Assembly: GCF_947507565.1 (NCBI RefSeq)
Contig: NC_089192.1
Coordinates: 1,046,690 to 1,110,689, forward strand
Reading direction: 5' to 3'
Length of the DNA stretch: 64,000 nucleotides
Source of the DNA: Oscarella lobularis
Taxonomy: Eukaryota
The position numbers were made by a program, and so were the translations under genes. Positions 17,005 to 58,658 of the stretch are shown piece by piece. How positions within the stretch are numbered: the stretch's first letter is position 1; every line of letters starts with the position of its first letter. Below the pieces are notes generated by a model that was given only the letters and a program-made list of their open reading frames with translations, did no database searches and had not been told where the DNA came from.

Positions 17005-18506
17005 TGTATGTATGCGTGACATCATTTTTTTTCTGGAACGTTATACGGACTGACCTGTGTTCATCTTGAATTCAAACTCGGACACTTCGACTCGTTGCGG
17101 CTGCGGCTTCCGTGTCTCCTTCTCTGTTCCGCTGAGAACGCTCTGCATGACCTTTTCGGCGATGCCACGAAGTTCAGAGTCTTTTTCCTATGTGCACAGC
17201 ACTCGATGAGAATTCATACTCTGATTCATTGACGTCTCGAAAACCGTGTAGGCTTTGAGCAATTTTTCCTGCGCCCACGTGGCCATTGACTTGCTATCCT
17301 TTTTCGATTTCAAAGCAGATGACGCCTGACCAGAGCAAAAGATTATAAATATAAAAATATTACGAGTTGTCTTGGACACCATAAAAAAGCCGCAAAGCGA
17401 TCTAGTGCTGTCGGGATTCAGTTTCAGAGCTTGGGCGAAGTACTTGCGAGCCAATTCCATATTATCAGTACCACCCATAGAGTATAGTATCTATAAATGT
17501 CCAATGGAAAAATATGACAATAGCTCTTCATTCTAGAAACCTCTGCGTATCTTTGATGAAACAATGGCATGTGAGGATTGACGAGAATAAGTTCTTCCAT
17601 GCAAAATGCAGCGTGTTTGAAACTATGGCCAGCATAATTATTCAAAAAAATAAATAATTCACTCTTACTCCAATTGAGATATGTACAGATCGGCTAACTC
17701 GAGCCAAGCCTCGTGATCACTCATAAAGCTACATAGAAGCTCATGCGTGCATTTGCCCTATATATATAGTATCTCTTTCTCTTACTCCTTCAAATATTCT
17801 GTTAGAGCCTCGATGGCTTCAGCTACGTCTTGCTTCGCTTTGAGTACGGCCACTTTTCTCTTACGAGCCAACTGAAAAACCATTTACAGCTCTTTTCAAT
17901 TAAAACTCGTGCGAATTCTCTCACCCCATACGTCGAATCTTCTTTCAATATTTCGTCGTAGACTTCCAAAGCTTCGTCGTAGCTTAGAATATTATGACGT
18001 CATCATCATCATTCGATTCGAAAAATTTCTTCAAAAATTATCTCACTTTTCAATGGATTCTAGATACATTCCACGTAGTCGTCTGACTCTCAGGCTCTTG
18101 GGAAATTGGCGTTTGAGCTCGTCGGAATAAAACTTTCGTTAGGAAGAAGAATGACCCATAGGAATTCTTTCGTAGTGTCCAAAGTTCTCTTGCCTGTGCC
18201 AACTTCTGTTTTCCGCAGTCCAAGGCGGCGAGGAACAATTGCTCGAAAACTATCCACACTGTGAAGGAAATCGTTCGTGGGGACGTTCTCTGACGTTTTG
18301 CTTCTATGCTCACGCTCGTCTCCTAGTCGCGATCGGTTCTTTTCGACGAGAGGCTTGCCTATTTTGAGTACGGTCAAACTGTCGCGGTTCTTCGCCTCGC
18401 GAAACTCTTTTAGGCGCTCTCTCGCCTCCCTCCAGTCCAGTTGAACGTCTTCGGACGAACGGGAGATGTCCTCCACGCGTCCTCCACTAGCTTCAGAGTG
18501 AGACAT
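17005..18506 (-). CDS. EMC2: ER membrane protein complex subunit 2 (TPR protein, EMC2/TTC35); multi-exon
   Basis: The start gives MSHSEASGGRVEDISRSSEDVQLDWREARERLKEFREAKNRDSLTVLKIGKPLVEKNRSRLGDE, similar to EMC2 ..TWEEMRDKMRKWREEN..EYASKLGDD. Later exons give WIVFEQLFLAALDCGKQKLAQ, FCMEELILVNPHMPLFHQRYAEV and [37 protein letters not shown]...SALKSKKDSKSMATWAQEKLLKAYTVFE, the last a near-exact match to EMC2 [27 protein letters not shown]. The last exon ends ..KMNTEKK* at about 17008. Confidence 0.85.
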
Positions 18507-23290: not shown

Positions 23291-23321
23291 TATGATTCAA
23301 CCGTTCACCTAATTAAGCTTG

Positions 23322-23700
23322 CTATCTTTCTTCGATTTCAAAGCAGATGACGCCTTACCAGAAAAAAAGATGATAAATATAAAAATATTACGAGTTGTCT
23401 TGCACACCATACTTGCGAGCCAATTCCATATTATCAGTACCACCCATAGAGTACAGTATCTATAAATGTCCAATGGAAAAAAAGATGACAATAGCTATTC
23501 GTTCTAGAAACCTCTGCGTATCTTTGACGAAACAATGGCATGTGCGGATTGACGAGAATCATGCAAAATGCAGCACGCTTGAAACTATGGCCACCAAATG
23601 CGCATATTACTCGAAAAACAAATAATTCACTCTTACTCTAATTGAGATATGTACAGATCGGCTAACTCAAGCCAAGCTTCATGATCACTCATAAAGCAAA
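23322..23700 (-). pseudogene. Duplicated fragment of the EMC2 gene (copy of about 17283-17732 with a ~60-bp internal deletion); non-functional
   Basis: The stretch cttgctatctttcttcgatttcaaagcagatgacgcc..ataaatataaaaatattacgagttgtcttgcacacc..cttgcgagccaattccatattatcagtaccacccatagagtacagtatctataaatgtccaatgg.. matches EMC2 exon and intron sequence around 17283-17732 at about 90% identity. It begins about 25 bp after the right TSD of element B. Confidence 0.8.
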
Positions 23701-24499
23701 ATCTACGATCTTTACCCGTGGAGGAAGGAACGGATCCACATGCTGATATTAACTAACTACAAAAATACCTAAAATTGAAACTATTTGTAGTTCAGGAATG
23801 CTAAAATCTTGACCTCGCGGATTTCTAACGAAACGCGCTAGATCTAATGCTAGATGCTAATATAACAACCTCGCGCGGTCAAACGGTTCGTGCAAGTCAA
23901 AATTTCCAAAGAAAATGCGCTAATTGATTCGGGGGGCCCCCAAAGCGTAGATCTATACCTGTTCCACTATTCGCACGGTTTCTTCAAATTTGAGCGTAAA
24001 TTATCAATTGCGAAGCGCTTCGTAGTCATAGATCACTGTAAAAAAAACGAAGCGAAAGTGATCGCGCGGCGACGTCCGGGTGGACGGATAGCCTTTTTCA
24101 TCGCGAAAAACAGGCACCCGATCGCCCATACGCTCACCGACGCCGTAATTTGCGTCGTTATTGGCTCCCGCGTCGTCGTCGTCGCCGAAATCGGCCGTTT
24201 TCTTCGTCTATGATCTACGCCACGTTCGATCTGCTTCGCATGTTCGTTTCCCCGATGTCCGGGCCGTTCGACAAGCCCGCGAAAAAGCCAATCGACGATA
24301 ATTTACAGCGAACGTAAGGCGAAACTGTGAAGGAAAGGAAACGCGACCACGAGGCATCGTACGCCATCTTGACCTTGAGGCGAGAAATCTTGCATCACTA
24401 TTGCCAAGAATAGAATTGCTGACCATGATCGTGATGCAATCGATGGTCAAACGGTATTAAAAAATTCGCACCTATTCGAAGGAACCAACCAGAGCGCTA

Positions 24500-25240
24500 G
24501 ATGAATCCAACGTGACCTCGACGGACCAATGAGCGCGCTGGGCGGAGCTAGCTACACGGTTCAAAAGGGAAGTGCACACCGATTCTCTTTCAGTTGCGGC
24601 CTAGGGTGGGTGCGGCGTGGAGCAATCTGCGTCTCATCCTTGACGGACTGGCTCGGGAGTATCGGCAAAAGGACAGTCTGGATCGTCGGATCAGCGTGGC
24701 CCACGGATTAATCCCGTGCCGGAGCCTCTAAGCAGGGCGATGGGGGGCTTCGGCCTCGGTTCACGCACTGAGCGAAAAGATCGCCTATATGTCTTATTGT
24801 TGCCAAACGAGCACGACCTGCGTTAGGCAGAGTGGGTACGGCTCGGAGGGGGTGTCGCAAGCGGTCTGGTTGCCGGCACTTATCTCACCAACTGGCACGA
24901 TTAGATTGCGGATGATCTGGCTCAGGAGAATTCGATCTGGGCATTGCACGTCCTTTCCTGTCGACTCCTACAAACAGTAGTCAGCCGCTCTCCACCTCAG
25001 AAGCCCTGGTTCTTAGCTTCGGCTTACCAATGTGGTCAGGTATCGTCGCGCCGGGGGACTCGGTATTAGGGGCCGACTACTCGTCCAGGCGGATACTGGT
25101 TGAGGTGGCCTATGAGGTCAAAACTCGCCCGAAACTTTTTGGAACGGGTGGCCATTGCTTTGCGGTGGCTGCCTTGAGCTACGTAGCGTCCGAACCTCCC
25201 CGTGGTGTAGCTCGGGTAATGCTAATACGGACGCATTCAG
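24500..25240 (+). ncRNA. GC-rich conserved non-coding element, copy 1 (candidate structured ncRNA; an inverted paralogous copy lies at 63514 to the window end)
   Basis: About 740 bp of around 60% GC with no ORF longer than 80 aa. It aligns to the reverse complement of 63514-64000 with frame-shifting indels, so it is not protein coding. The 3' 105 nt, ..ggaacgggtggccattgctttgcggtggctgccttgagctacgtagcgtccgaacctccccgtggtgtagctcgggtaatgctaatacggacgca, is about 91% identical between copies. It contains aggtcaaaactcgccc, preceded by ccaggcggatactgg and gccgggggac, which is reminiscent of the SRP RNA S-domain motifs CCAGGUCGGAAACGG and AGGUCAAAACUCC. The 5' boundary is approximate. Confidence 0.4.
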
Positions 25241-25911
25241 AAAAGGTGCGTAGAACGATATTTTGACAGTGACTAATTGGGATTTGATTTTTAGATCGCG
25301 AGCGCTGAAGGACGAAAATCGAAGAGAGAACGATCGACGAAGACGAAGACAGCCGGAGAAAAACGATCGACGAAAGGAAGGATCGAAAAATACAGTGGAC
25401 ACGTTAGACTAGGTTTCTGCATGAGTGCATGTATCCACTGTAAAATTACTGTACGAAATAAAATCATGTGCGCAACTTGATCGTCTACGTGGCCGTCGCG
25501 TATCTCGTCCAGCCTGCGATTTGGAAATAATAACAACGAGCCACGTACTAGTTATTTCCATCGAAACAACGGTACTCAGGTCTCAGGTAGGTTTTATCGG
25601 TGTACGCAGATACAGTGCACGACGACGTTTTAACTAAAAAGAGGAGAAGAATGACTTCAATTTCACTAGAGCCCATTTCGTATTGATACACGTATGAAAA
25701 CAATTCCAGTACCATTTCAGACAAAAGTACTGTGCATTCAGGTCAAAAGGGATTGTGCAGGAAAAGAACATTGCCAAGAGAATCACCAACCAAAATTCTG
25801 TCGGCTTCATCGACGACAGAAACAGCCATGGACGTGACAGGACCCGGTGCACAAAAGAGGCCAATCTTGAGAAGACGCAATTATGAACAGAATTGTGTAG
25901 ACTGATTTTCT

Positions 25912-28900
25912 CTAAACCTGTTGCAACGCCAGGCTACTCCACACTTTGACTGTAGCATCAGTTGACCCGGTGTAGTACGAATATTTGCCTACTCCACCAC
26001 CAGAAATAGCTTTTGAATGCAACTGAAAGGAAAGACCGTTAAACAGTCGAGCGCCAAACTTCGTGCAATATCTATGAAACCTTTTCCGCGACCATTTGTT
26101 TGCCGGTGACGCGATCGAATACAGATACCGTTCCACTCGAACTTCCCACCAAAATAATTTCCTTATTCGCTTCCAAATCGCTGAGCATTTTTGGACCGGT
26201 TTTCGTTCCGTGCGCGAGAAGTGTCCACTGCTTTCCTTCCTCTTCTTTCAAGTTCAATGCACTTCTGGAAGACGTCTAAACACGACAACACAGGTATATA
26301 GTAAAAACTTGCAGTCGGGAAAACACGAAGATCCTCCACGTAATCTACCATCTCACCTTTGAGCTGTTCCATACAAAGACTTTAGAATCCGCCAACGTCG
26401 CCATGAAATAACTTTCATCTTCGCTGAAGGATAGGTTGGTTATCCAATCAGTCGGGCTGCCACAACACAATCTATAGGGCATGTAACTTGTTGCAAGCTA
26501 CGCACTCACCCCTTGAGAACTGTGACTTTTTGTAGAGCATCGCCGGTAAATTTCCATACAATCGCGCTCTTGTCCCACGAGCCCGACAACAGAGTGCAAC
26601 TCTTGCGACTGTACGCGAGGCATGTAACTGGTAAACCGGTGTCTCCATGGGACAAACTATAGAAGAAACAAGGCTCCCTTGAACATAGTGAGGGGATAGG
26701 AATGCTTTTTGAAAAGAGCTACGAGATTTGGCGTCTTACTAAATTTTGAGGTAAAATTGCCTTTACAGTGTTTTTCGCAAATTTCAAGACCAACCAGTGT
26801 CTGCAACTTTTATGCACGAGAGACGTTTCGTCCGCCTGAACCGCAAGCGCCGTTTGCGCGCCATCAAGTTGCAGACACTGGTTGGTCAAAAATAGGCGTT
26901 CCCACCAACGCTATTATTTGTATGCAAGACTGCATGTGACGTTCCGACCGCCTGCATGAGCCGCAAGCGCCGCTTCAAGTTGCGCGGAACAAGTCATGGC
27001 AGCGTCCGACTGCTAATAGAATTTTTTCAACCTGCCACAAGACACGTTCCGTCCGCCTGAACCGCAATTGCGACGCTTGCGGTTCAGGCGCACGGAACGC
27101 CACTCGCGCATAAAAAGTAATGTGTAGCGTTGGCGGGAACGCCCACAATTGAGGGGTAAGTGTCTCTCACTCGTTTGCGCGCGAGCGGCGTTTGCGGTTC
27201 AGGCGCAAGGAACGCCACTCGCGCATAAAAAGTACAGTGTAGCGATGGCGGGAACGCCCACTTTTGAGGGGTAAGTGTCTCTCACTCGTTGCGCGCGAGC
27301 GGCGCTTGCGGTTCAGGCGCAAGGAACGCCACTCGCGCATAAAAAGTACAGTGTAGCGATGGCGGGAACGCCCACTTTTGAGGGGTAAGTGTCTCTCACT
27401 CGTTGCGCGCGAGCGGCGCTTGCGGTTCAGGCGCAAGGAACGCAACTCGCGCATAAAAAGTACAGTGTAGCGATGGCGGGAACGCCCACTTTTGAGGGGT
27501 AAGTGTCTCTAACTCGTTGCGCGCGAGCGGCGCTTGCGGTTCAGGCGCAAGGAACGCCACTCGCGCATAAAAAGTAAAGTGTAGCGATGGCGGGAACGCC
27601 CACTTTTGAGGGGTAAGTGTCTCTAACTCGTTGCGCGCGAGCGACGCTTGCAGTTCAGGCGCAAGGAACGCCACTCGTGCATAATAATGGCGTGGTCAAT
27701 GGCAGCGTCCGACTGCTAAGGGAAGATAGAATTTTTTCAACCTGCCATTACCACGCTATTATTATGCACTAGACATCCAAGCGCCGCTTGCGCGCAACGA
27801 GTTATCTGCAGAAACTGGTTGGTCAAAAATGGGCGTTCCCAACATTTACCAGGCTATACTCAGGCTATACTCAGGCCGGTAAAGTGGTAGCGACAACACA
27901 TTTCAGCCCCATTCAAAGCTATTGTACCTCAATTTCAAGTTATGCCTTTTTGAGTATATCCATAGTTGAATTGCACTGCCTTTTCCCACCACAAACGTAG
28001 CCCGTTCAACTGAAGATTCAAGAAATTTGACGGCATTGACTGGCTCGCTTGACTCCATCACCTGTGCAGGTACAGGTGTTATGCAACAGAGGTGTTCGTA
28101 CGGAAATGATATCAAACCTTGGAATGGAGTCTAGGCGAGAAGGAAGAATGATCGCCTTGAAGGGACCACAAAAGAACACTTCCGTCTCTGGAGAAGATAA
28201 AACTGTACAATTACGCACACAAAGTCATTACACAGTACCTGCTGGACGTAAGAGCCCAATACCCAGACGGACACATGTCGCCACAGGTTACGGAGGCGCT
28301 GTGTCCACGTACAACCGGTCCGACCTTAAAACAAACGCGTTCAAAGACCCTCTATATAAAAAAATTAGTAGCGTAATCAATTTACTGCATGCCTATAGAA
28401 GTAATCACAATTCCGATATATAAGTTACCTACCTGAGGCAGCCAAACCTTCACCGTCTTGTCCAGAGCACTCGTCACAATTCGATCTCCAACTGCTTTCA
28501 CGCTAAGAACGCGACCTGAATGCCCACTCAGCGCTGCTAATTCATTCGCCTGCAGAGCAAAAAATGCTTAGAAGTGATCCGGATCATATACTCAACTTTC
28601 TACCTGTAGAGCCATCCAGGAGCGAATTGATCCATCGTCGCCTCCAGAAATGACAGCTACGTCGCCGAAGCGAGCCTTTTCTCCTTCTTCGTCGAAATCC
28701 GTTTCCGTCCGATCGTCAGCCATGTCAGCCCAAGGAGTCGACGTCGATTCTTCTTTCTTCGTTGCGCCCGAGTCCTTTGCAAAGATACAGCACGCGTTGA
28801 CTCGTCGTTCGTGGCCGTGCAACGTCGTGATTTCGATGCCCTTGCGACTCCAGAGTTTCACCGACCCATCGACACTCGACGAAACAATACAACCAGCCTA

Positions 28901-31900
28901 AAAAGACACGATATCTCCTAAGCAAAAAGATCTCGCGTTTGTTTTCAAACCGTTATGGCTACGTTCGTCACAGAGCCGAGGTGACCTTTCATCTGAACGT
29001 TGGATTGGAAAGTTTCCAGGTTCCACAGTTTGACTGTGAAGTCGTTGGACGCCGTCACAATGAAGTCGTCTTTCTCGGATAGTGCCAGGGAATTGATCCA
29101 ATCTTTGTGCGCGTCAGAGAGCGATTTGATCTGAGAGCCCGTTCGGGTGTCCCAAATGATGATCGTCTAAAGGCAAGTACTTCTCGGTCCAGAGCAACTA
29201 AGTTCGTTTATATATATATATAGTACCTTATCTCGGCTAGCTGATATTACTCGCTTCTCATCTGAAGTCAAGCATACTCCGGTAACGGGAGCGGAATGGC
29301 CAGCCAATGAACGAACTGGACTCAAAAAACTGCCAAAAGAAATTAATTAGATAATAATAAATACGTCATATAAATGAATCCCGCCCAGCTGGGTACACTC
29401 ACGTTCCGGAAGACGGTTGCTTCTTGGCAGGCTTCTTTTTCACGTCGTACAGACAAACGGTGAAATCCTCGGAGCCCGAACTTATGAGCTTGTTACGCCA
29501 ATCCACGCACCACACTCCCTTCTCGTGGCCAACGAGAGTCTTCTCAGCCTTCTTAGACGACGATGAAATGATCTAGAAGAGACTCTCTCGTGACAATGCA
29601 TATGAAAAAATGCTAGAGTCAAAACCTTGAGCGTTCCATCGTCCGAACCAGATACGAACCGCTCTCCAAATCCGCTTTTTTCCCATGCCAGACAGCAAAC
29701 TGCAGCAGTGTGAGCTCCTGGGTACATCGTAGTAAGAGGAAAGCCTGCTCTTTATTAAGCATACCATCAATTTCGTCTAGTTCAACACCGGATAATGCAT
29801 CATAAATTCGAATTAGCTTCTCGTGATATCCGGCTGCCAGTAGACGCGACGAAGGATCGACCGCCAAGCACAAAACGCCGCCCACGTCTTCAACAGCATG
29901 GGCAGTGTACGTTGGCTTGCCAAGATAGCCAGACCAAACCTAGAATACAACAGAAGTTTTATTAGACGTCACACGCACTACACTGAGAAATTAGTGTACC
30001 TTGATAAGCTGATCGTCACTTCCCGTTACGAGATGACCGGACTTGGTGAAACAAATCGCATTGACAGGTAACGCGTGACCGGTCACGCAGCCAACCTAAA
30101 GACACATCCAAGTCCACTATATATAAGCACGAGTCTCTCACCTGAATTCCGGCCATGGAATGCCAGATCTTTATCTGCCCGTCGAGAGAAGCCGAAGCGA
30201 TGTGCACTCCGCTAGGAGAATACGCCACTGCTCGCACCGAACAAGAGTGCCCTCGAAGAGTCTTAATTAAAAAAATACAATATTCAATTTTTTTATTTAA
30301 ATCTCAAACTTAGTGAACCTTGATTCGTTTCCGGTTGAACGTGTCGTATATTCTCATTCTCGAATCCCAGCTTCCCGTGACGATGAACTGGCCTTCGGGA
30401 TGGAAGTCGACGCAGTTGATCGGTTTCTCGCCGCTTTTCAGCTCGGCAACGACGCTTCCGTCTTTGCCGCTCCATATAACGATGCGCGCGTCCCATCCAA
30501 CGGAAACGATGACGCTGCCCGACGGATCCGACGCGCACGCGCCAACTTGGCGCTTGTGACCCATAGCAGTCGAAATTCTATAAAGAAGCAAAAAAAACGT
30601 TTGACAACCGTCTCTACTCTTTGGAGTTAAAAATTATTGAGACTGCCTCTTTTTTAAGTGCGACTTACCTGTGACCCCCTTGAACATCCCAAAGGGAAAA
30701 GGCACCGTCCAGGGATGCGCTGCACAGTCGAGACGCACCCGCAAAGCAACAGCTAACAACTGCGTGAGCGTGTCCGACAAATGATTTCACTTCCTAATAT
30801 ATTTCGAACAATTGAATAGGACAATGCTCTAATAGGAGCTAGTGCTTACTTTTCCTGTAGCTAGCTCGTAAAGTTTCACTGTGCAATCCTGAGAGCCGCA
30901 CGCAATGAAACGACCGTCGGACGAAATTGCCACGCACAGTACAAGCTAGTGATAAACAGACGATTGAATTTATCAAAATGTCTCCTTATATCTCTTACCT
31001 TTGAATTTCCGCTGATAGTCATTTGGCATGGATGACTCTTATCTGGCTTATTCACCCAGAGAAGAAGCGACGAGTCTTCGCCGCGCTGTCGCTGACTCAC
31101 TATTTCATGCGCTGCTTTAGACACAACTGACGTCGCAGGCTCGTTGATTGCCTGCTGCATCACCAGAGTTGAGTAGCTAAGAAATAACAGATGAATTTCA
31201 AAAACGCCAAACAAATAATTGAATTAATTAATCAAAAAATTGCAATTCTCACCTTGACATGATGTGAATCTGCTGAGAGACGAACGAACGATATTCCTGC
31301 AAAGTAGAACTTTGGAGAAATTTCTGCCTTTCTTTTTCCATCAGCGGAGGAAAATCGTGCTTTCCTAAACGACACGTTCTGCTCGCGATCTCGTTCGCCG
31401 TGCGACTACTGTACCCCTACCGCCGGCTTGGAGGTCTTCCACGACCTGGAGTCCCAATCCAAGTTGACATTTGACTTGAATGTATCGCAAGTTGCAGACG
31501 ACTTTTCCCAAGTCTTCCCACGCGCCAGCGCAAGTCTACAGCAGTCGAGACGTCTATTAGAAGGGGATTTCGCGATAAACGCAAGCAGGAGACCAACTAA
31601 ATTTAGGTGGGGGCCCCAAAAGTAAGAAAAGAGGCGCCCATTACCAAATGATAAGCTAGTTCACTACAGGCACGCTTGTTGAGACCGGAAAACGTCCCAT
31701 CACGAGCGGGATCCGCCTCGTTGTAGAAATAAGCTAAAGGAAAGGAAATTACGATTGCACAATGACATTTGAAGAAAATTTATATAAGTATATGGTACCA
31801 GCAATTAGACGATGGAGTTTCGTTTCTTCGTCTTTTGGTGACGATTTCAGATACTGTTTTTTGATAGCGTTGATGACGTCAGAATGACACAAAAGCATCA

Positions 31901-34900
31901 CTCCATCCCTAAAAAATAATCAAATCGTAGCTGCTAAGTTGTCTTTGAAGCCCCGCTGTACCTGGATCCAGCTGTAGACTGCAGGAAACATTGAAGACTT
32001 CGGATGAGTCGAATAAAATTTGCCTGACTGACTGGACTCTTCCGCGATAAATCGCCAAGAACGCTAGAAAAGTGCGGATCAAGAGGACTCAGCTTGGAAT
32101 CGACGTTGCAAGAACGTAGGCTAAGAAGACTAAGCAGCTCCACTTCAGAAAGACCTGAAAACGTACAGAAACGGTTATGTATGTTCGAGGCAGTTTTTTC
32201 AGTTTCACCGTTTCGAGAGCAAAGGAGCAGGTGCAGAGCCATGGAAACCAAATCTCGTCCGTGATCCACTTCCAATCGATTGAGAACGTCTTGCAACAAA
32301 CCGCCCAACGAAGAAGGCATCTGCCTCAACTTTTCAGAAACCTAAGCATATAAACATAGATAAGGATGGACCCTTCCACTTGCCTATACTATGATCACCT
32401 TTTCGTAGACCCCGAAGACGCGCAACTCTTCGCAGGCCAAGGCAAGGTATAGAGGAATATTGGCATCTTTCTTACTCAGCAAGATTTTCAACTGCAACGA
32501 GTCAAAAATTATTTTAATTTAAATTACCGTCGCCAAATTAATTCTCGCCTGATTATTAAATGCCGATTCGTTGAGAGTCTTTCGATGACGACCGAGCGAA
32601 TCGCGGACCATGTCGGCTTTGTCGAACATGTCTAGTCCACTGAGAGAAATCACGTTATTCTCCTGGTGTCGACGTTGCAAAGAGGCGTAGCACGGGTCAC
32701 TATCTAGAACACTCACAACGAAGAGAACACGCTAGGAAAAGATAAACAAGTAGATAAAAATAATTTTTTGAACTATAGCCTTCTTACGTTTGGTAATGGG
32801 TCAGGCAGCCACTCCATAGTTTTGGCCGAGTGTATCTCGTCCAACTGATCCAAACCGTCGACAAAGACAATAATTTTGTTTGACACGCCCACGTTGAGAG
32901 CAGCCTTTGCGAGCATTTCGGGTAGTGCCATCGCAAGTTCGTTATATTCCTCAGCGACGGGATCGTCGACGTCGAAGCGCGTTTTCAATTCGTAGCAGAT
33001 GCGACGAAGAGCTTTGGAAATGTTCGTCGAGCCGGGCGACACGCCGACAAAGTGAGCAAGGAGAAGAGAGAAAGAAGAACACGAGGCAGAAGAGCCATAG
33101 GAATGCATAATAGCAGACTATAAGAAAAAATATATATATATATATATTATTTCTCACTGCGTCTGCCATGTGATAAGCTTACCATTAGCGATGTCTTTCC
33201 CATACCCGGTTTTCCTGCTATCACAATCACGCCGGAGCTCATCTTTTCAATGGCCGCTTCGGCCTGCTTCAGAACGTTTTTCCGGCCCGTGAATATTTCG
33301 TTTGCGTGCTCGGCGAACGCTCTGTGACGTCGAGACTCCTCGTCCATTTCGTCTTCGCCAATTTCCTGCACGGAAACAATGCAGACATCAGACGCTAAAC
33401 GACGTTAATAGAACGTAATACCTCATCAGGAAATTCCTTCAGCAGTGCATTCCAAAGATTGTTCAGCACGCGACCGCCGAACTCTTCGAGCGACCGAACC
33501 ATCGGCTTTCCGTCCAAAACGCCGCCCCATTCACACGGATAGCTGCAATGAATTTTATGACGCGAGCACTTTTCGATAAGACAAACGTCCTCACTTTTCA
33601 AACACTTCGAGTCCACTAGTCTGAATTCTCGCCTTCAAATCCGCCATCCTGGCTGCAGACTCGCTGCTTTCTGCTTCGAACGACTTCCTAGCATCTTCAG
33701 GAACAGCACTAAGATCAACAGTGAGAGACACCTCTCTCTCCCTTGGGTACGAACACACCTTAAAAACGATTGATCTCGAAAGTAGAAAAAAGCTCTCGTC
33801 TGGCAATCGAGTGGATTGGCCAGAGCCGCGTGATGAATCTCCAATTCCGTAATCGATCTCCCCGACGCGTAATCGCGCACCCAATCGAATTCCGGCTCGT
33901 CCGGCACGTCGTAGCGATCCGGAATCCAGCCGTAACGTTCGCCGAGAATTCCGACGAAAAAATCGCAATGGTCCACCTCGCTGAGACAAATTTCGACACC
34001 CCTGGGGAGCGAAAATAATAATAATATTAATTGACAAAAATCAACTATAATTTAAATTTACTTTCTGCTATTCATTTCGTTCTCCGTCACGCCCCATCGA
34101 AGATCGACTTCGTAAACGTTGATGAAGTGCCGTTTCGCGCGCTCGCGCAGCTCGGGAAAGACGTAGCGCGTGAGAAGGTCCCTTTCGCCGTGCATGTCCT
34201 TGAAAGTCGAGCTGATGAACACGCGAGCCGTACGCCACCTGAAAGACCAAAATAAATAAATAAATAATAAGAGATTCTTCTTTTATAGTCGTGCCTTGGT
34301 TTGAGACTTTGATGGGTGTTCTCGTCGCCTTCGAAAGGAGGCTTCACCACTGGAAGTCGTCGACCGAGTGCGGGTTGTTTGACGTCGGTGAGACGGTGAG
34401 CCTTGTCGATGTTTTCGACGTGCGCCAATTGGCCGCCGCCACCTCTTTCAGCAATGAACCTGGGAGAGGTTTCAATAAGTATACGTACACGTTGTGAATG
34501 CATGAGACTTACCTCAGAATTTGGTCACTGTAGCCGGCAATGAAGACGTCGTTTTCGTGACGAGAGGACGTCGTGGAAATACTAGATAAGATAACACACG
34601 TTTGTCTATTGATCGACTGCTGAACTGGCCAGTTTATTGACCTGCATTTGGTTCCACTCAGATCCACGTTTACGAACAGCAAATTCGAATTGACCGTGCG
34701 TCGATACTTTTCCAGAAAATTAGCGACGAAATCGGCAGAACGCCCGGCGGACGTCGCACCGTCCAAAATCATGAGAGTGTCAATCTGCGAAAACAAATTC
34801 TCGTCACACTAGCGAAGACTTCGAATTGAAAAAAAAAACTCACTGAAGTTTGACTCAGAAGATAATCAGTCAAAATTTTACGAGGCAATTCGCCCACGTC

Positions 34901-37900
34901 AGAATTCAAATTCTAAAAAATAAATAAATAAACAAATCGCCTAATAGGACAAAAGAGGGCATAGCCTCTTAATTGAAAAATATTATTCCCTCTACAGGAC
35001 GTGGACAAGACTGTACTCACTTTGGATTTTATTTCTTCGAGAACGGACTCCATATTCTGCAGTATAGTGCCGTCCTTGAGAACGACCGACATGTGCTGGC
35101 CGTCCGCACCGAACGCTCGAAATTCGCATTCTTCGCACGAAAACTTGCACATCAAGCCAAGCAACAGACTCACTTCCAAAACCTAGAAAAAATCAATTAT
35201 TAATTTTAATTAATTAAATCGCGTTCTTCTCGTACCGTTCTTGGCTTTCCCAATCCTCTAGCCGACGTGCACGGACGTTCCATTTTCGATCCAACATTGC
35301 ACAAGAGTAGAGTTCGGCCTGATATTGGCTTCACGTTGTGCAGCGTGGCAATTTTTACAGACGTATCCAAAGCGCGTCGATATCGTTCGATAATCGACAA
35401 ATCGATTCGTTCAGCTCTGAGAAGAAACTAGATACACGAAAGGCCAAAAAAACGAGGACGCCATCATTACTTTTCTGCCAATTTCTTTGCTCTCCTTTTG
35501 GCTGCTATTTCTGCCATTGCATTTTTTTCGTTCGTTTTTCCTCTTGCTCTCGGTTTCGAAGTAGGAACAGCAACTGAGAAACAGTATGGATTTCAAATTC
35601 ATCTGTAAAGGTTATGCCTAGTGTACCGACCTCCTTCGATTGCCAACTTCTCGAGTTGACCCAGTACTTCGAACGCGGAAAAGAAGCGGAAGGGAAACTG
35701 GCGACTATTCACCACAGCACGCTATAAAAATGAAAAGAATCAGAAGAGCAATATAACAAAGACTATCAATTATACTTCATCAGCAAGTTTCTTCAGTATT
35801 ATGCTGTGATGCTTTGATGATATTCCCGCGAGAATGAGATTGCGCAGATTGCGCAGCATGGCCATAAAGGGCAGCTTGCGATGATCGATCAGATCCTGCC
35901 ACGTTGACGCGTGATTTCCCTTCAACGAGACTTGAGTCTCCCACGTTTCAGGCATGGCCAACTTCATGCGTTTACCGGCTAATTCCTATAAACGAGAAAA
36001 AGAAATGAATACATAGTACGAACAGGGTTCTGCCGAGAATTTGTTAAGTGTGGGAAGAGGGTCTGGAGACATAGACGTGTATACTATATACTGTATGCTG
36101 TAAGCAATACCCCAAGAAAAGAGGCGTAGTTGCCTATTAAAAATCAATAGAAAAGGCTTCTTTGCTTATGAAATCTGAAAGGCTTGCGTATAAGACGTCT
36201 ATATTCGTGGATTGGGCGAAGGGGCCCCTTTTGGGGGTAAAAGCGTAGAGACACGTCTTTTGACCGCCACGAGCTCAAAAACGCGACTTTCTGCGTAAGA
36301 AAACTTAAAAAAATTGAAAAAAAAAACATCGACACTTGACACAAACCCCGCGGAAGACGGTGCTATGGAGGTTTATCCGGTGACAGAGGTGACAACGTTT
36401 TACAGTAGTAGTATGGGAGGGAGAGAGGGTCGGGGTCGGGCAGAACCCTGTACAAAAAGCCAAAAAAAATTTCTCACCGAATTCCACGTTCCGGGTAGTT
36501 TGGACAGGTAAAAGGAGTCGAGATTGGCGGGATACTTCTTTCCGATGAGCGACATGACGTGGTCCACCGGCGCGGTAATGTGAAGCTTTCGGATGAGCTG
36601 TTTCAGCGTGAACGTAAGTCGAGCGAGCTCCTCCTCGTCCTCCTTGTCGTCGTCGTCGTCGTCGCTCGTTTCCACGTCAGAAGCAGAGGACTGAACAAAA
36701 AAACAACAACAGTATTAGAGATTGTCTAATAAAAATGACCACGTACTACAGTGCCTCCCAGATTACTATATTTCTGTTCGTCACTTTCTTCGGCATATGT
36801 TTTACCTCTTCCTCTTCTTCCTTGCCTTTCTTCTTCTTTTTCTTCGTCGCGGGGCCCTTCTTTTTCTTCGTCTTGTTGTATTTCGCTACAGTCAAATGAA
36901 GGAAAGAGTCTATGACGTAGTCAGAACGGAGTGTCCTCACCGAGTTGATAGGAATCGAACTGAGGAAACTTGGCGACCATTGCTTTACGCAAAGCAACTG
37001 GAAGCGACCCAGAAATCAAAGATTTGTCCTGAAAAGCCTACAAGTACACAGCCAATGTATTTCTATAAATCAATAAGATATTGGGATATAACCTGATACA
37101 TTTCTGCTACGTCTATCCAATCAGAAGGAAGCCGGATACTTGCAGAGAAATACTTCTTGATGTAAGGCCGACACGTGTGACAGTTGGCGGCTACGGCCAA
37201 AAGAAAATTGGCCACACTTCGAATGTTCAACTCACAGCGAGCATAGAGCGCAACCTCAACAAAAAAATTAAAAAATGAATTATCTCCGAGGATGTTATTT
37301 AATTAAAAGGTACTTTGAGAATGAATTCAGGATCGAGAAGAGATATCTGTCTGCACGTCTCGAGTATCACAGAAAGCGTCGGGTCAGACGGATTGCGAAA
37401 GTTGGGCAACTGCAGCAAGGAGGTAGCAACGCAATTCAGAAGAAGAGTCTAAAGAAAAATACACTAGCTATTCTGATGTGAAGCCTATGTACATATATCT
37501 TCTACGAGTACCTTATTAGCAGCAAGGGCAACAGAACGCTGCTTTCCTCGTCTCTCTTCCTCCGTCGGAAAATTCATAGAGGCGAGTGCGGACTTCACAA
37601 TGTCGAGTGGGCTCTCGTCGACGCTTCCTAAGTCGTATTCGGGCAGACAGAATCCGTCTGTGCTCTCGAGTTCAATTGGTCTCGCTACTGGTGCCGTCTC
37701 GGAGGCCTGCGCGTTGCGCTTCTTCGGTTCGACTAGTTTTCTCCTGATGCTGCTGGTCTCCAAGGAGCTGAAGCCGAGTTTCTGCTTGAGGAGAAGATTC
37801 GTTGCGCGTTTCTGTTCGTGTGACTGAACAGATGAGATGAGCCTCGGGCCCGACGATTTCAGAGGTCGGCTAGATAGTGTCGGTGCTCCCGACGTTAGAG

Positions 37901-42185: not shown

Positions 42186-42644
42186 TAACGAGCTACTAAA
42201 ACAGAGCGCACGAGAAAGAAAAAAAACTTGGCAGTTTGCCCCTGGCTGGTCCATGATGTAATAGCTATAAGCCCTACTGTGAGATGATACATGCTAAATT
42301 TGCAGCTAAATTAGACCATAAAAGGTCATTTTAGCATCTGATTTTCTGAAAAGGGCGAAGTACCTAGAAATTTGTAATTTGATTAGACAATCAGCAGAGG
42401 GCATCTGTCCATTATAAGCAAGAAGGCAGTCAAAAAATGCGTTTTCATCAAACGGCTTCATAATCGGTCGCTCTATCTGTGTGCTCTTTTGTGCCATCAT
42501 CAAGCTTAGCATTCGCTGGCCGAGATTTAGCGCATGTCCCAAAAGGCACGCCTCCCAGCTCCGCATCCCTGGGAAATGCTAATTGGCTGTGGGGTAAACA
42601 CCGACAGTCATAACAAAACTGGCGCATTTTTGAGACGACGAGTC

Positions 42645-43982
42645 ATGCACGTCGTTCAACATTTGCTCAGCGTCGTCACTCTGTTACTCATAACAATCTG
42701 CACAGGTGCGGCACGAGACAATCCCCACCGAAAGTCGGCTTATCTGCAGTCCATTGCTAAACGAGTCAATAGCGACGCTGAATCGACGTGGCATGCGTCC
42801 AAGACCCTTGCCGGCATCGAATCTCAAAACGCAGATCTTCTACGCCAAGAACGCGACGCCCCAGCTTCCGTAGACTGGAGCACCAGCGGGCTCCTTCGCC
42901 CCGTTGACGACCAAGGCACCTGCGGATCGTGCTGGGCATTCGCTTCAGCGCACGCCTTCGACGACTATCGTTCGCTTCAAGCCAAAGCACAGCAAACTGC
43001 GACGTCCGTTCATCGAATTACCGCCTGTTGCGAGTATTCAGGCTGCAACGGCTGTGACGGCGGTCAACCAGGGAGCGGTTTTGTTTTTCTAAAGGAAGAA
43101 GGAACGGTGCCTCATGCGTGCGAACGGTACGACATACGAACCTTACTTCTAAACCCGACATGCCCTAGATTCTGTGACGACGGATCAACCGAGATCACGC
43201 CTGCGCTCAGGTCACAGTACAAATTGAGTGACTTCAGTTCCGTAAATCCACTCACAGTAGCAAAGATGAAAGAAGCGCTGGCATTGGGCCCACTTGTGGC
43301 TGTCTTAATCGTGTACTCTGACTTCATGACCTACTCGAAAGGCATCTATCGTTACAAGAGAGGTAATTGCGAAGGCGGTCATCTTATTGAGGTAGTTGGC
43401 TATGGCAGCGAAGATGGCGAGGACTATTGGATATGTAAGAACAGCTGGGGAATTCGCTGGGGCGAAAAGGGCTTTTTCAGAATCGCCGCAGGAGTTGAGA
43501 AAGAACACGGAATAGAGCAAATCGCCCTTGCTCCGTTCCCCATTGCAGGTAGCACGACTTCCTTTCAAGAATCCTCTGGCTTTCTTCTTGGCGTTAATGA
43601 GCACAGAGAAACTGACGATGCAATAGTACTTGAAGCAGCCAACTTTGGAGCATATGAACTCAATCCATTTTGCCCAGGAAAAGACATCGATCGTACAGTA
43701 ATTCGTAATCTGACCCTTATCAAGGTGAACAGAGCATCCCGTAAGATCGTAAGCGGAGTGCAGATTACTTTAACCGCTACTTACCAAGAACAAGGATGTC
43801 CTGTGCAGACGAACTATGAGTTGGTCGTTGTTATGAGTACTGAAGGCGAGTACAGTCTTCTTCGGTCACGGTTTGTACCGTCCGAGAATTCAGCAGCTTC
43901 TCGTTGCAATGTGAATTGGTTGATGACTTTGCTTCTTCTGTTTGGAGTTGCAGAAATTCTTTGGAATGGCGGTGGTGACTGA
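42645..43982 (+). CDS. Cathepsin B-like papain-family cysteine protease 1; intronless, with signal peptide, ~150-aa C-terminal cystatin-like extension and a hydrophobic C-terminal tail
   Basis: The ORF starts MHVVQHLLSVVTLLLITICTGAA, a signal peptide. The active-site Cys lies in QGTCGSCWAFASAHAFDD. The occluding-loop region gives CCEYSGCNGCDGG. The His/Asn region gives [40 protein letters not shown], which has cathepsin B character. The C-terminal extension, ..EAANFGAYELNPF..NRASRKIVSGVQITLTATYQEQGCP.., resembles the cystatin pattern F..EYN...QVVAG.NY. The protein ends in a hydrophobic tail NWLMTLLLLFGVAEILWNGGGD*. The upstream in-frame ATG at 42534 is not conserved in paralog 2. Confidence 0.85.
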   Translation: MHVVQHLLSVVTLLLITICTGAARDNPHRKSAYLQSIAKRVNSDAESTWHASKTLAGIESQNADLLRQERDAPASVDWSTSGLLRPVDDQGTCGSCWAFASAHAFDDYRSLQAKAQQTATSVHRITACCEYSGCNGCDGGQPGSGFVFLKEEGTVPHACERYDIRTLLLNPTCPRFCDDGSTEITPALRSQYKLSDFSSVNPLTVAKMKEALALGPLVAVLIVYSDFMTYSKGIYRYKRGNCEGGHLIEVVGYGSEDGEDYWICKNSWGIRWGEKGFFRIAAGVEKEHGIEQIALAPFPIAGSTTSFQESSGFLLGVNEHRETDDAIVLEAANFGAYELNPFCPGKDIDRTVIRNLTLIKVNRASRKIVSGVQITLTATYQEQGCPVQTNYELVVVMSTEGEYSLLRSRFVPSENSAASRCNVNWLMTLLLLFGVAEILWNGGGD

Positions 43983-44369: not shown

Positions 44370-44945
44370 AGTCGGCTATGGTAGTCAAAACGGCGAGGAT
44401 TATTGGATATGTAAGATATGTAAGAACAGCTGGGGAAGCCAGTGGGGCGAAAACGGCTTTTCCAGAATCGCCGCAGGAGTCGAGAAAGAACACGGCATAG
44501 AGCGAATCGCTCTTGCTCCGTTCTCCAGGTGGCACGACTCACTCTCAAGAGTCCTCCGGATTTCTTCTCGGGGTTAATGAGCACAGCGACACGGATGATG
44601 ATGCCACAGTACTCGAAGCAGCCAACTTTGGAGCGTACGAACTCAATCCGTTGTCCGGGAAAAGACGGCGACCGAATAATAGGACCCTAATCAAAGCGAA
44701 CAAAGCATCTCGTAAGATTGTCAGTGGAGCGCAGATCAAACTGACGGCTTCGTATCAAGAACAAGGGTGTCTTGAGCAGAAGAGCTACGAGTTCGTCGTC
44801 GTCATGAATACCTATGGCGAGTGTACAGTCTTATTCAGTCAAGGTACGTACCGCCAGAGAATGTGGAAGGCACTTCAGCAGGTTCTCGTCACACTGCGAA
44901 TTGGCTGTTGATTCTGCTACTTCTGCTTGGAGTCGCGATTCTTTA
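44370..44945 (+). pseudogene. Truncated cathepsin B-like pseudogene (3' third only, frameshifted)
   Basis: The fragment gives ..[51 protein letters not shown], a frameshift, then [14 protein letters not shown].., and [73 protein letters not shown]. There is no 5' catalytic Cys region. Confidence 0.75.
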
Positions 44946-45174
44946 TAGCGGCGGTTGCGACTGACGGGTGAAGACTCGAGCATCAGACAGAAAGTGCTGC
45001 TGTTGTTGCATAGGTGTCATAGTAAATGATGCGCTGCTGCTTCTGCTCCTTCTGCTCCTGCTCTAGTCTACTGCTTTTTTTGTCTTGTCTTTCTTCTCTG
45101 CCACTGCAATTACAAAAATAACGTTGGCAGTCTGACAATAGATACGTCTATAACGAAACGCTCACCAAACCTTT

Positions 45175-55474: not shown

Positions 55475-58400
55475 ATGGGTCTCCTGAGCGAAGGTTCTCC
55501 TCTCTCGTGGCAAGAAACGAAGAAGCACGTCGACCACGTGAAAAAATCGGGCATCCGACAATTCCTCTCAATCTATCGTCGACTGAAAGATCGCCAAAAG
55601 GACCATTTGAAGTGGGGCGACGAAGTAAGCGCGACTAGACGAAAAACAAACGACGTTATTTCACCTGCACCACGACCAAAGATCGAATACACGCTCGTGC
55701 ACTTCGACCACGAGCGCAAGACAGCTCGCCTCTATCTCGACGGACCGAAATATTTGGAAACGCTTCAAGAGGAAGAAAAGCGCTCTCCCGAGTAAGCGAA
55801 ACAAGAAAAAATCAGCTAAAAATTCCTAATGCGTTGCCGTGAAGCTCGCATCCGACGACGTGGCGACCCGAATATGGGAGCTACATGCTCGAATGTACGT
55901 AGGTTCATCCACATTTACATGAGTCATCGTGACGCGTCGACGTCGCCTTTGGGTTCGATTTAATTAATTCTAATTGATGACCACGCCTTTTTAGCGACAC
56001 CCGGAAAACCGTGGGTTTTTGTTGGCGATTTGTCCGAGTTCAATGACGTCGAACCGAACATGAAGCTGAGGTAGTAAATAGGCCACGCCCTAGCTATTTA
56101 TTAATTAGCCTGCACGAAGTTGTACTATTGGTAGTCTAGGATCTCGAGAGAATGCAGTGGGCATTGTCTCGTGCATTGATTGACCTTTTGGTCTGTTTTT
56201 ACTTAATTAGAAGTGGAACCCTCATTGTTGGCTTAGGTGCCATGTATGCGTTTTTCTAGACTCCCTTGCGCCTTATACTGTAGTGATAAACGATGTTGAA
56301 GTGCTAAAACGTTTACCGCAATTCATACAGGAGAGAAGAGATTACGAAGCTTCTTGAAGGAACGAACGTTTCTTGTTTGACCGTGACAACGTTTCCCAGG
56401 TGACACTGGCCTTTTCACTCATTTTCCCCCTCATTGAAGCATTTTGTTGTCTCTCGCGCTCACGAAGAATTGGCTGTCCTGATTTCACGCAACCGATTTA
56501 TCGACCGACTCCCCAACCCGAAGCTGATGGAGCATCGCGTTCGGTTTTCTATCCTGACCAGGCCATCTATCCCGGACACCCTCGATTCCGGTGAGACGAC
56601 TACCCTTCTTAATTGATTTATTAATCGACTTTCTTTTAGGACTTTGACGCGAAATATTCGCGATAGACGAGGATCCAAAGTTGCAATGAATTTGCCGAGT
56701 ACGACATTCGTTGACAGGGGTTTATTTCAAAGAAATTTTATATTGCACTAGTTTTTCGAGACGCGAATACGCCGTCTCCTTTCGTGGAAACGTTCGACGA
56801 TCCCGAAGCCAATGCGGCGTCGCTTAAGGATCACGTCTATCTCGATTGCATGGGCTTTGGAATGGGATGCAGTTGTCTCCAGGCGAGAGAACATCATTTG
56901 TCTTTCTTCTCGTACAACTAGCGTCTCTCGCCTTCTAGATGACCTTTCAAGCATGCAGCGTCGACGAGGGAAAGTATCTGTATGACCAACTGGTTCCCAT
57001 ATGTCCTATTGTGGTACGCTTGCACGCATAGTATATATACTACAGTAGCCAACACTTTACATGTGTCTTGTTCTTTAGATGGCTCTCTCAGCTGCGGCTC
57101 CCATCTATCGAGGCTATCTTGTTGACAGTGATTGTCGCTGGAATGTCATATCTGGATCCGTCGATTGCCGGACTCCCGAAGAACGAGGGCTGAAAGTAGG
57201 AGGAAGTGGAGGCATTAGGCTCTGCTCTTATGTATGTTGTGGTACTTATAGCCTCTATCTGAAAACAAATTCGTCATTCCTAAATCGCGTTACGGATCTG
57301 TTGATTGCTATTTGGCCAGCGACAAATACAACGACGTTCCCATTCAGTACGAACCGGAAGTCTTGCAAGAATTAATAGACGAAGGTAAGTAGGACTCTCT
57401 TGCAGCAAAGTCCCACCTCACTTCTTTATTTTCCTCAAGGAGTGGACGAGCTCTTGGCTAAGCACATCGCTCATCTTTTCATACGTGACACCGTGTCGCT
57501 GTTTTCGGAGAAAATTAAGCAGGATTTAGAAAAGGAGTCTGATCATTTTGAGGTACGATATTCCAATACGTATATATCTTTTTCACTGTGCATATATGAA
57601 CACTACTAATAGCATACGTACCTGCATAGAGATGCATAAGTCACACTGCTGCGTTTCTAGAATATCCAATCAACGAATTGGCAATCGATGCGCTTCAAGC
57701 CGCCACCTCCCAATTCAGATATCGGATGGAGAATCGAATTTCGAGTTTGTGAGGTGCAAGGCGTTTTTAATTAATTGGCATAAAAATTCTCCTCGCTTAG
57801 ATTGGGTTCTCTTGTCTTTTCAGGTTCAGGTGACGGACTTCGAGAATGCCGCCTACGCTGTCTTTATTGTTCTTCTCACCAGAGCCATAATGTCATTTGG
57901 ACTCAATTTTTATATGCCAATATCAAAGGTAGTCTGTGAATCTCTTCAGGGCGCCTCTCGCTTTCACCTATTTATCTAGGTTGACGAGAATATGGAAAAG
58001 GCCCAGAGACGGGATGCTGCGCGCGCTGAAAAATTCTATTTTCGTTGTCAACCGTTTCCTGGTACGAAAGAAAAAGATCCACGTGAATGAAACGATTTCA
58101 CAGCATTAATAGGAGATTTTGAAGTTAAAGCGGAAGACCCCGAATTCAGCTTGATGTCCGTAGACACGTTAATTAATGGAAAAGTAATAGTATATGTCTT
58201 CCTTGTAAATAATCACTTCTCTTTTTTGTAGGACGGTGAATTTCCCGGGTTAATTCCTCTTATTTGGCGCTATTTGGATTCCGTTCACGTCGACGCTGAA
58301 ACGCATTGCACGATAAGTCGCTACTTGTGTCTCATTGAGCGTCGAGCCTCAGGTCAGTCAATAATTGCGGCCAAAAATGGCTATTAGTAAACGTATTCCT

Positions 58401-58658
58401 TCAAAATTTCTCACGCCTTTATACTAATGCTGTGGTTTTATACATATATATATAGGAAAGGTGCTGACTGCGGCTCAGTGGATGCGCCAATTCGTTCACA
58501 GTCATCCCAAATACTCTCGAGATTCGGTTGTGTCCGACGAAATCAATTACGATTTGATGTGCGCTTTCGATAAGATCATGAAAGGCCAAATGGGCTGTCC
58601 AGAGTTGTTGGGAAAATGCGACGACCTTCTTGAGAGAAAAGACGCTCAAACGTCGTAG
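55475..58658 (+). CDS. GCLC: Glutamate-cysteine ligase catalytic subunit, paralog 2; complete, about 14 exons
   Basis: Exon translations match GCLC along the whole protein. They read [50 protein letters not shown], an intron, [36 protein letters not shown], an intron, [277 protein letters not shown], ..[48 protein letters not shown].. and ..[67 protein letters not shown]. Confidence 0.9.

Follow-up and report, generated by a model that had tools for sequence, protein, structure and literature searches.

Self-cleaving ribozymes of the hepatitis delta virus (HDV) class are, to our knowledge, encountered in eukaryotes chiefly in retrotransposons, where they process the 5′ end, with a few curious cases residing in introns. 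Within non-LTR (long terminal repeat) retrotransposons such as R2, L1Tc, RTE and baggins, they form the 5′ end of the element and cleave co-transcriptionally at their own 5′ edge, with the sequence downstream being conserved and that upstream variable (PMC6765202). A recognised subgroup, the 'minimal' delta ribozymes, dispenses with helix P4 and has been reported almost exclusively from bacteriophages and metagenomic data, with nearly 99 % of its members restricted to the former, its role outside of phages being largely unknown (PMC10879173). The P4-less theta ribozymes of phages sit directly 3′ of tRNAs, and have been proposed to trim 3′ trailers (PMC10879173). Herein, a 64 000 nt stretch of the genome of the homoscleromorph sponge Oscarella lobularis is analysed (contig NC_089192.1, forward-strand positions 1,046,690 to 1,110,689; hereafter the window), with the focus on a conserved non-coding element present in two inverted copies, the 3′ end of which probably constitutes a P4-less HDV-like ribozyme.

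By homology, this element is one member of a multigene family of dozens in O. lobularis. The reading that we favour, and consider likely, is that of a dispersed family of genes transcribed by RNA polymerase II, the products of which resemble small nuclear RNAs (snRNAs) and acquire their 3′ end by self-cleavage.

Extent and non-coding nature of the two copies

Copy 1 (W1) occupies positions 24485–25236 of the plus strand, the alignment of the two copies ending at GGACGCA. Copy 2 (W2) extends on the minus strand from the window end to 63521, with its 5′ part lying beyond the window. This portion was taken from the source assembly (ENA ERZ18545485, contigs ptg000061l and atg000076l; loci L003 and L002), which was reached via a spurious 95 aa open reading frame (ORF) in copy 2 that had been annotated as a gene. 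The inverted arrangement proposed by the initial annotation is confirmed by a BLAST comparison of the window against itself, in which 24791–25243 pairs with 63993–63512 on the opposite strand at 75.2 % identity over 488 nt; overall, the copies are ~70–75 % identical. The sharp common end described for them is likewise evident, as a MAFFT alignment breaks off at ...GCTAATACGGACGCA in both, and the 3′ part is indeed the most conserved, with the last 60 nt displaying 88 % identity compared to 69 % for the body (P=0.0004). The statement that the copies can be aligned over their whole length is more complicated: within the window only ~450 nt of copy 1 is comparable, but the full copy 2 is homologous from the CCAAT boxes (window 24485/24524; L003 9438) to ~7 nt past the ribozyme (GGACGC). 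Outside of the element, 9.7 kb of copy 2 flank produced no further match to the window.

Substitutions between the copies lack 3 nt periodicity; the frame-shifting indels originally observed are present. The element is non-coding; a coding gene or pseudogene was rejected for want of periodicity. The assertion that no ORF is longer than 80 aa is slightly off, with ORFs of 78, 91, 94 and 95 aa overlapping the copies. The GCLC paralogues said to flank both regions are real, their exons being identical to O. lobularis XP_065843701 and XP_065844045, but distances of ~22 kb and ~5 kb separate them from the copies, with intervening genes that are not paralogous. These two genes (75–2941, minus strand, and 55475–58613, plus strand) are inverted on one contig, encode proteins with 76 % identity and have introns of 50–95 nt, showing a compact genome.

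A candidate HDV-like ribozyme at the 3′ edge

The last 59 nt of the element (G25176–C25234, plus strand, in copy 1) probably form a P4-less HDV-like ribozyme, with self-cleavage predicted at its 5′ edge, between U25175 and G25176. Read by hand, copy 1 yields G25176-AGCUAC (P1), GUA, GCGUCCG (P2), A, ACC (P3) and UCCCCGU (L3), followed by GGU (P3′), GUAGCUC (P1′), GG (P1.1), GUAAUGCUAAUA and CGGACGC (P2′). In coordinates, this corresponds to a P1 of 7 bp (25176–82/25207–13), P2 (25186–92/25228–34), a P3 of 3 bp (25194–96/25204–06), L3 (25197–25203) and a P1.1 of 2 bp (G25214–15 with C25198–99). Alignment to RF00094 points to C25222 as the putative catalytic cytosine. The counterpart in copy 2 is found at 63521–63578 of the minus strand and begins with a G1·U wobble (GGGCUAC/GUAGCCU). 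Across the family, ribozyme length varies only from 58 to 60 nt.

At gathering thresholds, Rfam returned no match for the whole window. With permissive scans of both copies and six further loci, only HDV models came up, being the top matches at the same 3′-edge position in copy 1, copy 2 and L013, a sub-threshold outcome for a check that had been proposed with SRP, telomerase, RNase P/MRP and vault families in mind. Copy 1 scored 24.6 bits with RF02682 and 24.5 bits with RF00094, both below gathering, and copy 2 scored 25.6 bits with RF00094, 17.7 bits with RF01787 and 16 bits with RF02682. Over copy 1, copy 2 and L013, RF00094 gave 24.5–32.4 bits (gathering threshold 50), RF02682 16–24.6 bits (threshold 44) and RF01787 17.7 bits (threshold 37). 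Such values are consistent with the missing P4, for which ~30 model positions are deleted, and the absence of this helix would place the Oscarella sequences in the 'minimal drz' subgroup (PMC10879173).

A descriptor demanding P1, P2, P3, P1.1, G1 and the L3 motif matched solely copies 1 and 2 in the 128 kb of strand searched (both window strands), and none of 300 dinucleotide shuffles. In the seven distinct ribozyme sequences of the family, all 19 pairs are retained (133/133 cells), compared to 20–39 % in slid controls. Variation is concentrated in unpaired positions, affecting 11 of 22 such columns versus 3 of 38 paired ones (Fisher p=0.0004), and the three paired columns that vary belong to two adjacent P1 pairs, both intact, in which A-U becomes G-C beside a G-C that becomes G·U. 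G1 is present in all copies, with a G·U at the base of P1 in six of the seven distinct sequences; the G1-C of copy 1 is accompanied by a compensated neighbouring pair and is kept across the copy 1 subfamily. L3 reads UCCNCG(U/C/UU) in every copy, differing only at N and the last position, and the GC(U/G)AAUA surrounding C25222 and its equivalents is invariant.

Structure of the RNA body

Upstream of the predicted cleavage site, copy 1 would specify a multi-domain RNA of 584 nt (24592–25175, plus strand). For copy 2, the predicted length is 618 nt, of which the 3′ 422 nt lie in the window (63579–64000, minus strand) and the remainder at L003 9533–9728; across copies the RNA measures 577–622 nt up to the cleavage site. 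The fold was derived with RNAalifold from eight paralogues, namely copies 1 and 2 plus L007, L009, L010, L013, L014 and L015, which are 66–99.8 % identical. It contains 161 pairs in 24 helices, with 95.9 % of cells able to pair, as opposed to ~40 % when the partners are slid. Compensated pairs number 35, versus 16.6±2.4 in shuffles (0/500 reach this value) and 0–9 in slid controls. The suggestion of a structured non-coding RNA (ncRNA) under selection is therefore supported, and in three close pairs of loci the RNA is also more conserved than its flanks. No Rfam family matches the RNA body.

The two copies alone gave a divided answer to the fold test originally proposed for them. Their joint alifold energy is favourable (z=−4.3), but compensatory pairs did not exceed the null, and the structures of one copy imposed upon the other kept 0.39–0.42 of pairs, compared to an expected 0.34–0.35. 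Covariation became visible only once more paralogues had been found.

Four parts of the fold stand out. A helix links the 5′ end to the stretch just before a U-rich site, a near-invariant three-way junction occupies alignment columns 136–208, a hairpin with seven compensated pairs presents a conserved GUUAGGCNCGAG loop, and a covarying hairpin closes the 3′ end. Between the closing helix and this last hairpin, copy 1 displays a single-stranded Sm-site-like sequence, ACUUUUUGGAAC (25134–25145, plus strand), the core of which, UUUUGGAA, is invariant and unpaired in 8/8 copies. The full motif, A(A/C/U)U4–6GGAA, resembles the consensus RAU4–6GR, with a C at the second position in three copies, and suggests that Sm proteins may bind here. 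The 3′-terminal hairpin of copy 1 (25146–25173, plus strand), helix 24 of the fold, ends 2 nt before the cleavage site and comprises 12 pairs, three with compensatory changes, 95.8 % of cells being paired; its strands read GGGUGGCCAUYGC/GCGGUGGCUGCC, alternating with GGGAGUCAUCGC/GCGAAGACUUCC. In copy 2, the corresponding features are AAUUUUGGAAC (63620–63610) and a hairpin at 63608–63581, both on the minus strand.

Gene organization

All copies are preceded by two boxes of the form CCAAT(C/G)AGNGCGC, by GGGCGG in some cases, and by a TATA or TCAAAA box. In copy 1, these are represented on the plus strand by a distal CCAAC box (24485–24497), a proximal CCAAT box (CCAATGAGCGCGC, 24526–24538), GGGCGG (24540–24545) and a TATA-like TTCAAAAGG (24560–24568); the CCAATSAGNGCGC pair is conserved in 8/8 loci. 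Other copies harbour TATATAA, TATAAG or TCAAAA at the same distance as the TATA-like box of copy 1. An initiator-like sequence, TCAGT(T/C)G(C/A)GGC, follows ~30 nt past this box and is near-invariant (TCAGTTGCGGC at 24590–24600, plus strand, in copy 1), such that transcription is predicted to start at ~A24592.

Downstream of the ribozyme, six of the eight loci possess an exon of ~9 nt and a candidate intron of ~48 nt, AAAAG|GTACGT...ACTAAY...TTTTCTAG|G, which matches the form of the GCLC introns in the window and would be spliced. In copy 1 it is 49 nt long (25246–25294, plus strand; GTGCGT...ACTAAT...TTTTTAG), beginning 11 nt after the ribozyme, and leads into a purine-rich terminal exon (25295–25480, plus strand) with AATAAA at 25457–25462. 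Of the six intron-bearing loci, five (including L007, L009, L010 and L014) have an AATAAA between +175 and +230, and the sixth, L015, has an ATTAAA near +380. No ATG-initiated conserved ORF was seen in the terminal exon. Subfamily B, made up of copy 2 and L013, is without the intron and carries AATAAA at +75 (63440–63445, minus strand, in copy 2). Transcription by RNA polymerase III was considered and rejected, as T4–T6 runs within the RNA, together with the intron downstream and the poly(A) signal, favour RNA polymerase II.

Family size and mode of duplication

A word-based protein search with the ORF of copy 2 recovered only itself. A profile built from two spurious ORFs, searched exhaustively against 1.84 billion protein representatives, returned a further eight short 'proteins', each a translation of this same ribozyme (ASEPPRGVAW..., or ASEPPRWCSLGNANTDA where the frame is shifted). 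Five of these eight were traced, all to other contigs of the same assembly, and gave the six further loci listed above. According to cluster tables, family ORFs have 57 contig occurrences, with the copy 1 type alone accounting for 13 variants on 28 contigs, and an identical 132 aa ORF is shared by at least two separate loci. There are at least 11 loci, and probably 20–35 once the presence of both primary and alternate haplotigs is taken into account. The supposed two-copy feature has thus become at least eight distinct loci read, with dozens indicated. High copy number had been named at the outset as a sign of a mere repeat, and copy number is indeed high; nevertheless, the case for selection is not overturned, since the behaviour of the copies is that of a multigene family and not of repeats in decay. 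A few are dead (P0267 is without 36 nt, and half of its ribozyme is gone). In the public protein collection, dozens of short 'proteins' (clusters P0001 and P0243–P0271) are translations of this RNA family, and hence annotation artefacts. A synteny check around GCLC in Corticium candelabrum found no homologue, and a metagenome scan for a 20 nt block of the hairpin gave two chance matches, in bacterial genes.

With regard to the three closest pairs of loci, RNA identity is 87.4 % for W1/L007, 84.4 % for W2/L013 and 99.8 % for L009/L010, whereas their flanks are 55–85 % identical and fade to random. Flank homology ceases 660 nt before the start and 90 nt after the ribozyme for W1/L007, 470 and 130 nt for W2/L013, and 165 and 400 nt for L009/L010, respectively. 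As these limits vary from pair to pair, the copies are best viewed as genes duplicated at the DNA level, the RNA being subject to selection or gene conversion; for L009/L010, exon 2 is only 42–88 % identical. All eight copies are full length. At the eight loci, no terminal repeats (inverted or long), no poly(A) tails and no neighbouring reverse transcriptase or transposase were found. Hallmarks of transposable elements such as fixed termini, terminal repeats and an A-tail were thus not seen at these loci; the many dispersed copies, some of them near-identical, do fit such elements, but are equally expected of multi-copy RNA genes.

A 114 nt tandem repeat, partly inverted, is present at 1397–2355 of the window (near the first GCLC paralogue) and at 26800–27851 (1.6 kb downstream of copy 1), and also adjoins two further family loci (L013 3508–3873, L014 574–779). 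It may be a common satellite or miniature inverted-repeat transposable element, or be linked to the family.

Proposed mechanism and implications

The family, fold, ribozyme architecture and gene layout described above suggest a start site, cleavage, splicing and Sm binding that would operate as follows. RNA polymerase II would transcribe the whole unit, from an mRNA-type promoter through the RNA exon, ribozyme, intron and exon 2 to the poly(A) site. On emerging, the ribozyme would fold behind the stable terminal hairpin and cut immediately ahead of its first nucleotide (U25175|G25176 in copy 1), releasing a capped, non-polyadenylated RNA ending in ...GGCUGCCUU with a 2′,3′-cyclic phosphate. 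The intron and poly(A) cassette would handle the downstream remnant and termination, with the remnant being spliced and polyadenylated, or degraded. The terminal hairpin may also keep sequence further upstream from drawing the ribozyme into a wrong fold, an effect known from HDV. At the level of a guess by analogy, the released RNA might be the scaffold of a nuclear ribonucleoprotein (RNP), given that paired RNA ends, an invariant single-stranded UUUUGGAA and a 3′-terminal hairpin together make up the layout of Sm-class snRNAs.

More broadly, and only tentatively, homoscleromorph sponges may own a new class of abundant, ~0.6 kb Sm-type RNP RNAs, made from dozens of mRNA-like genes in which a built-in P4-less HDV-like ribozyme replaces the usual 3′-end machinery of snRNAs. 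If true, this would be the first cellular animal case of ncRNA 3′ ends made by a ribozyme, and 'minimal' delta ribozymes would for the first time have been placed in a eukaryote. In the literature searched, no description of a ribozyme-terminated layout was found for a cellular animal gene, nor any report of HDV-like ribozymes from sponges or from the 3′ ends of telomerase RNAs or snRNAs. Ribozyme-defined 3′ ends are a device used by synthetic biologists; the present family suggests that a cell routinely relies on self-cleavage to give the product of an mRNA-type unit a precise 3′ end free of poly(A). A large, structurally conserved RNA family would also be exposed in an early-branching animal, where it is unannotated and where dozens of spurious short proteins are presently predicted in its place. 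Processing should be lost upon a single point mutation, which provides a clean experimental handle.

Alternative explanations

A number of observations weigh against the favoured reading. Every Rfam HDV score (16–32 bits) falls under its gathering threshold (37–50), P4 is missing, only 12 nt separate P1.1 from P2, and 30–32 model positions are deleted in the alignments. The ribozyme helices are nearly invariant and so offer little covariation, with 69 of 500 shuffles reaching the observed value; copy 1 and its subfamily have G1-C and not the usual G1·U; and the descriptor was composed after the sequence had been seen, and hence is not an independent test. For the RNA body, single-sequence fold energy is ordinary (z=−0.46) and, with two sequences, compensatory pairs stay at the level of column shuffles. 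The Sm site is a short motif, and the start site is placed by motifs. The ORFs through which the copies were found are for the most part translations of the ribozyme, so that the sample is skewed in favour of copies in which it is intact; all of the copies derive from one species, with no orthologue from elsewhere in the set. Finally, dozens of copies, some identical at separate loci, also fit an amplifying element.

This last possibility, a selfish, non-autonomous mobile repeat with its own promoter, in which the ribozyme sets the RNA end for copying and apparent selection reflects competition between active subfamilies, is the main rival, albeit an unlikely one. It would account for the 57 contig occurrences, the 28 contigs of copy 1 type and the 132 aa ORF repeated at separate loci, as well as for distant copies that share sharply bounded homology between unrelated flanks. 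The 114 nt repeat near three of the eight loci may be counted in its favour, as may the typical association of eukaryotic HDV-like ribozymes with retrotransposons (PMC6765202). Against it, the layout of retrotransposons is reversed here, with conserved sequence upstream of the ribozyme and variable sequence downstream (PMC6765202); a promoter upstream of the predicted start and a retained intron imply that these are not retrocopies; duplication boundaries differ between pairs; terminal repeats, poly(A) tails and enzymes of mobility are absent from the loci, and every copy read is of full length; and copies that have diverged by 25–30 % keep every ribozyme pair. If, instead, the product were the uncleaved, spliced and polyadenylated transcript, or a downstream fragment, with the ribozyme acting as a switch or destabilizer that sets its level, then the conserved intron, terminal exon and AATAAA after the ribozyme in six of eight loci would be explained, these being what one expects of a unit built for a processed RNA polymerase II transcript. 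Such a product is improbable, as exon 2 is the least conserved part (see L009/L010), consists of purine-rich sequence of low complexity in which no ORF is conserved, and is missing from subfamily B, whilst the RNA ahead of the cleavage site is where conservation is highest. Equally little weight, or slightly less, falls to the idea that the HDV-like fold is coincidental, the 3′ block being another structured domain and the 3′ end being made elsewhere, for example at the poly(A) site. The low Rfam scores, missing P4 and minimal covariation all allow for this; however, every copy has, at canonical spacing, G1, four helices that are nested or form pseudoknots, a UCCNCG loop, the P1.1 GG and a GC(U/G)AA junction, no shuffle of 300 reproduced them, three independent HDV models fall on the same place, and family homology stops at the last P2 pair.

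The initial annotation had itself leaned towards a relative of the signal recognition particle (SRP) RNA, and had remarked upon a TEP1-like neighbour. A divergent SRP, telomerase, 7SK or vault-type RNA tied to that gene is now scarcely credible, and as far as sequence can test is refuted. What spoke for it were a GGGGGAC motif and a 12 nt match of AGGTCAAAACTC to helix 8/5 of 7SL, together with a WD40 gene 700 bp away that has a weak TEP1 propeller match. Permissive Rfam scans of both copies and the six loci produced no match at E≤10 for SRP, telomerase, RNase P/MRP, vault or 7SK models. In local alignments to human 7SL and 7SK, similarity to 7SL is not above shuffles (z=1.7, −0.4 and −0.8), and that to 7SK is likewise at chance level. 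The junction match, which had been deemed unlikely by chance, is confined to copy 1, the rest of the family not having conserved it; the AGGUCAAAACUC stretch varies amongst paralogues, and is the 3′ strand of the covarying closing helix formed with the RNA 5′ end. SRP RNA was thus rejected for want of a model match and a conserved motif, and because size and copy number are wrong. Telomerase RNA was rejected too, as there is no conserved CCCUAA template in the family (in agreement with the earlier failure to find a template-like run), no H/ACA box (the 3′ end being a hairpin plus UU), and at least 11 loci. In addition, Oscarella carmela already has a predicted telomerase RNA of the H/ACA type, which is 409 nt long and different from the present family (PMC8480181). 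The neighbouring gene itself (25900–36000, minus strand) encodes WD40 repeats and an NWD1-like winged-helix domain, with a sub-threshold match to the second propeller of TEP1; no TROVE domain was seen in its tested ORFs, and the other seven family loci are without a similar neighbour, leaving the proposed TEP1 link unsupported. A Fanzor/TnpB-type guide RNA was rejected also, the large neighbouring ORFs being tandem host genes and not nucleases.

Other features of the region

Several further repeats and gene arrays were observed. A direct repeat of ~400 nt lies upstream of copy 1, at 17290–17729 and 23318–23697, its units being 88–92 % identical and 6 kb apart. Tandem intronless cathepsin-like cysteine protease genes (Peptidase_C1) with a C-terminal extension are located at 42534–43982, 44370–45125 and 47454–48929, displaying 82 % DNA identity and including a partial third copy. 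Between the second GCLC paralogue and copy 2, within 60–62 kb, a tandem repeat of 63–65 nt (60306–60754) lies in an AT-rich stretch (GC 0.38) with a strong G-over-C skew (+0.29). Just past the right end of the window, L003 464–8495 contains tandem BTB/BACK-NHL gene pairs as well as intronless ORFs of ~800 aa that match no Pfam entry and are ~90 % mutually similar, one of which begins ~1 kb upstream of copy 2 in divergent orientation.

Comparison with known systems

Fission-yeast TER1 is made from an RNA polymerase II precursor in which an Sm site near the mature 3′ end precedes an intron, with a further exon and poly(A) beyond it, the cut falling just downstream of the Sm site. There, cutting is the first step of splicing, whereas in Oscarella a ribozyme placed ahead of the intron would perform it; the Oscarella family is, moreover, multi-copy and has no telomeric template. 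MALAT1 and NEAT1 obtain their non-polyadenylated RNA polymerase II ends through a structured module upstream of a poly(A) site, which is cut in trans by RNase P. That module is tRNA-like, whilst the Oscarella module would cut itself.

Families of Sm-class snRNAs share with the Oscarella genes a dispersed, multi-copy arrangement with far stronger conservation of the coding part than of its surroundings, and a single-stranded U-rich site followed by a 3′-terminal hairpin. The Oscarella RNA differs in being three to five times longer, in its mRNA-type promoter, in matching no U-snRNA model and in paralogues that diverge by up to 30 %; an Integrator-type 3′ box, as found in snRNA genes, was not seen, and none was sought. 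SRP (7SL) RNA has in common with copy 1 the AGGUCAAAACUC stretch and G-rich runs of its S domain, but differs in all of the respects given above.

Further parallels concern the ribozyme. Those of the non-LTR retrotransposons are of the same class, are at home in eukaryotic hosts and cut co-transcriptionally at their 5′ edge (PMC6765202), whereas the Oscarella family has no reverse transcriptase, reverses the order of conserved and variable sequence, and keeps an external promoter and an intron. Theta ribozymes offer the same nested double pseudoknot without P4, and their position 3′ of a structured ncRNA follows the logic proposed for Oscarella, a likeness drawn from their description and not from sequence alignment. 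Unlike theta, however, the Oscarella ribozyme would act within a nuclear, intron-containing RNA polymerase II gene family of an animal, behind an RNA of ~600 nt.

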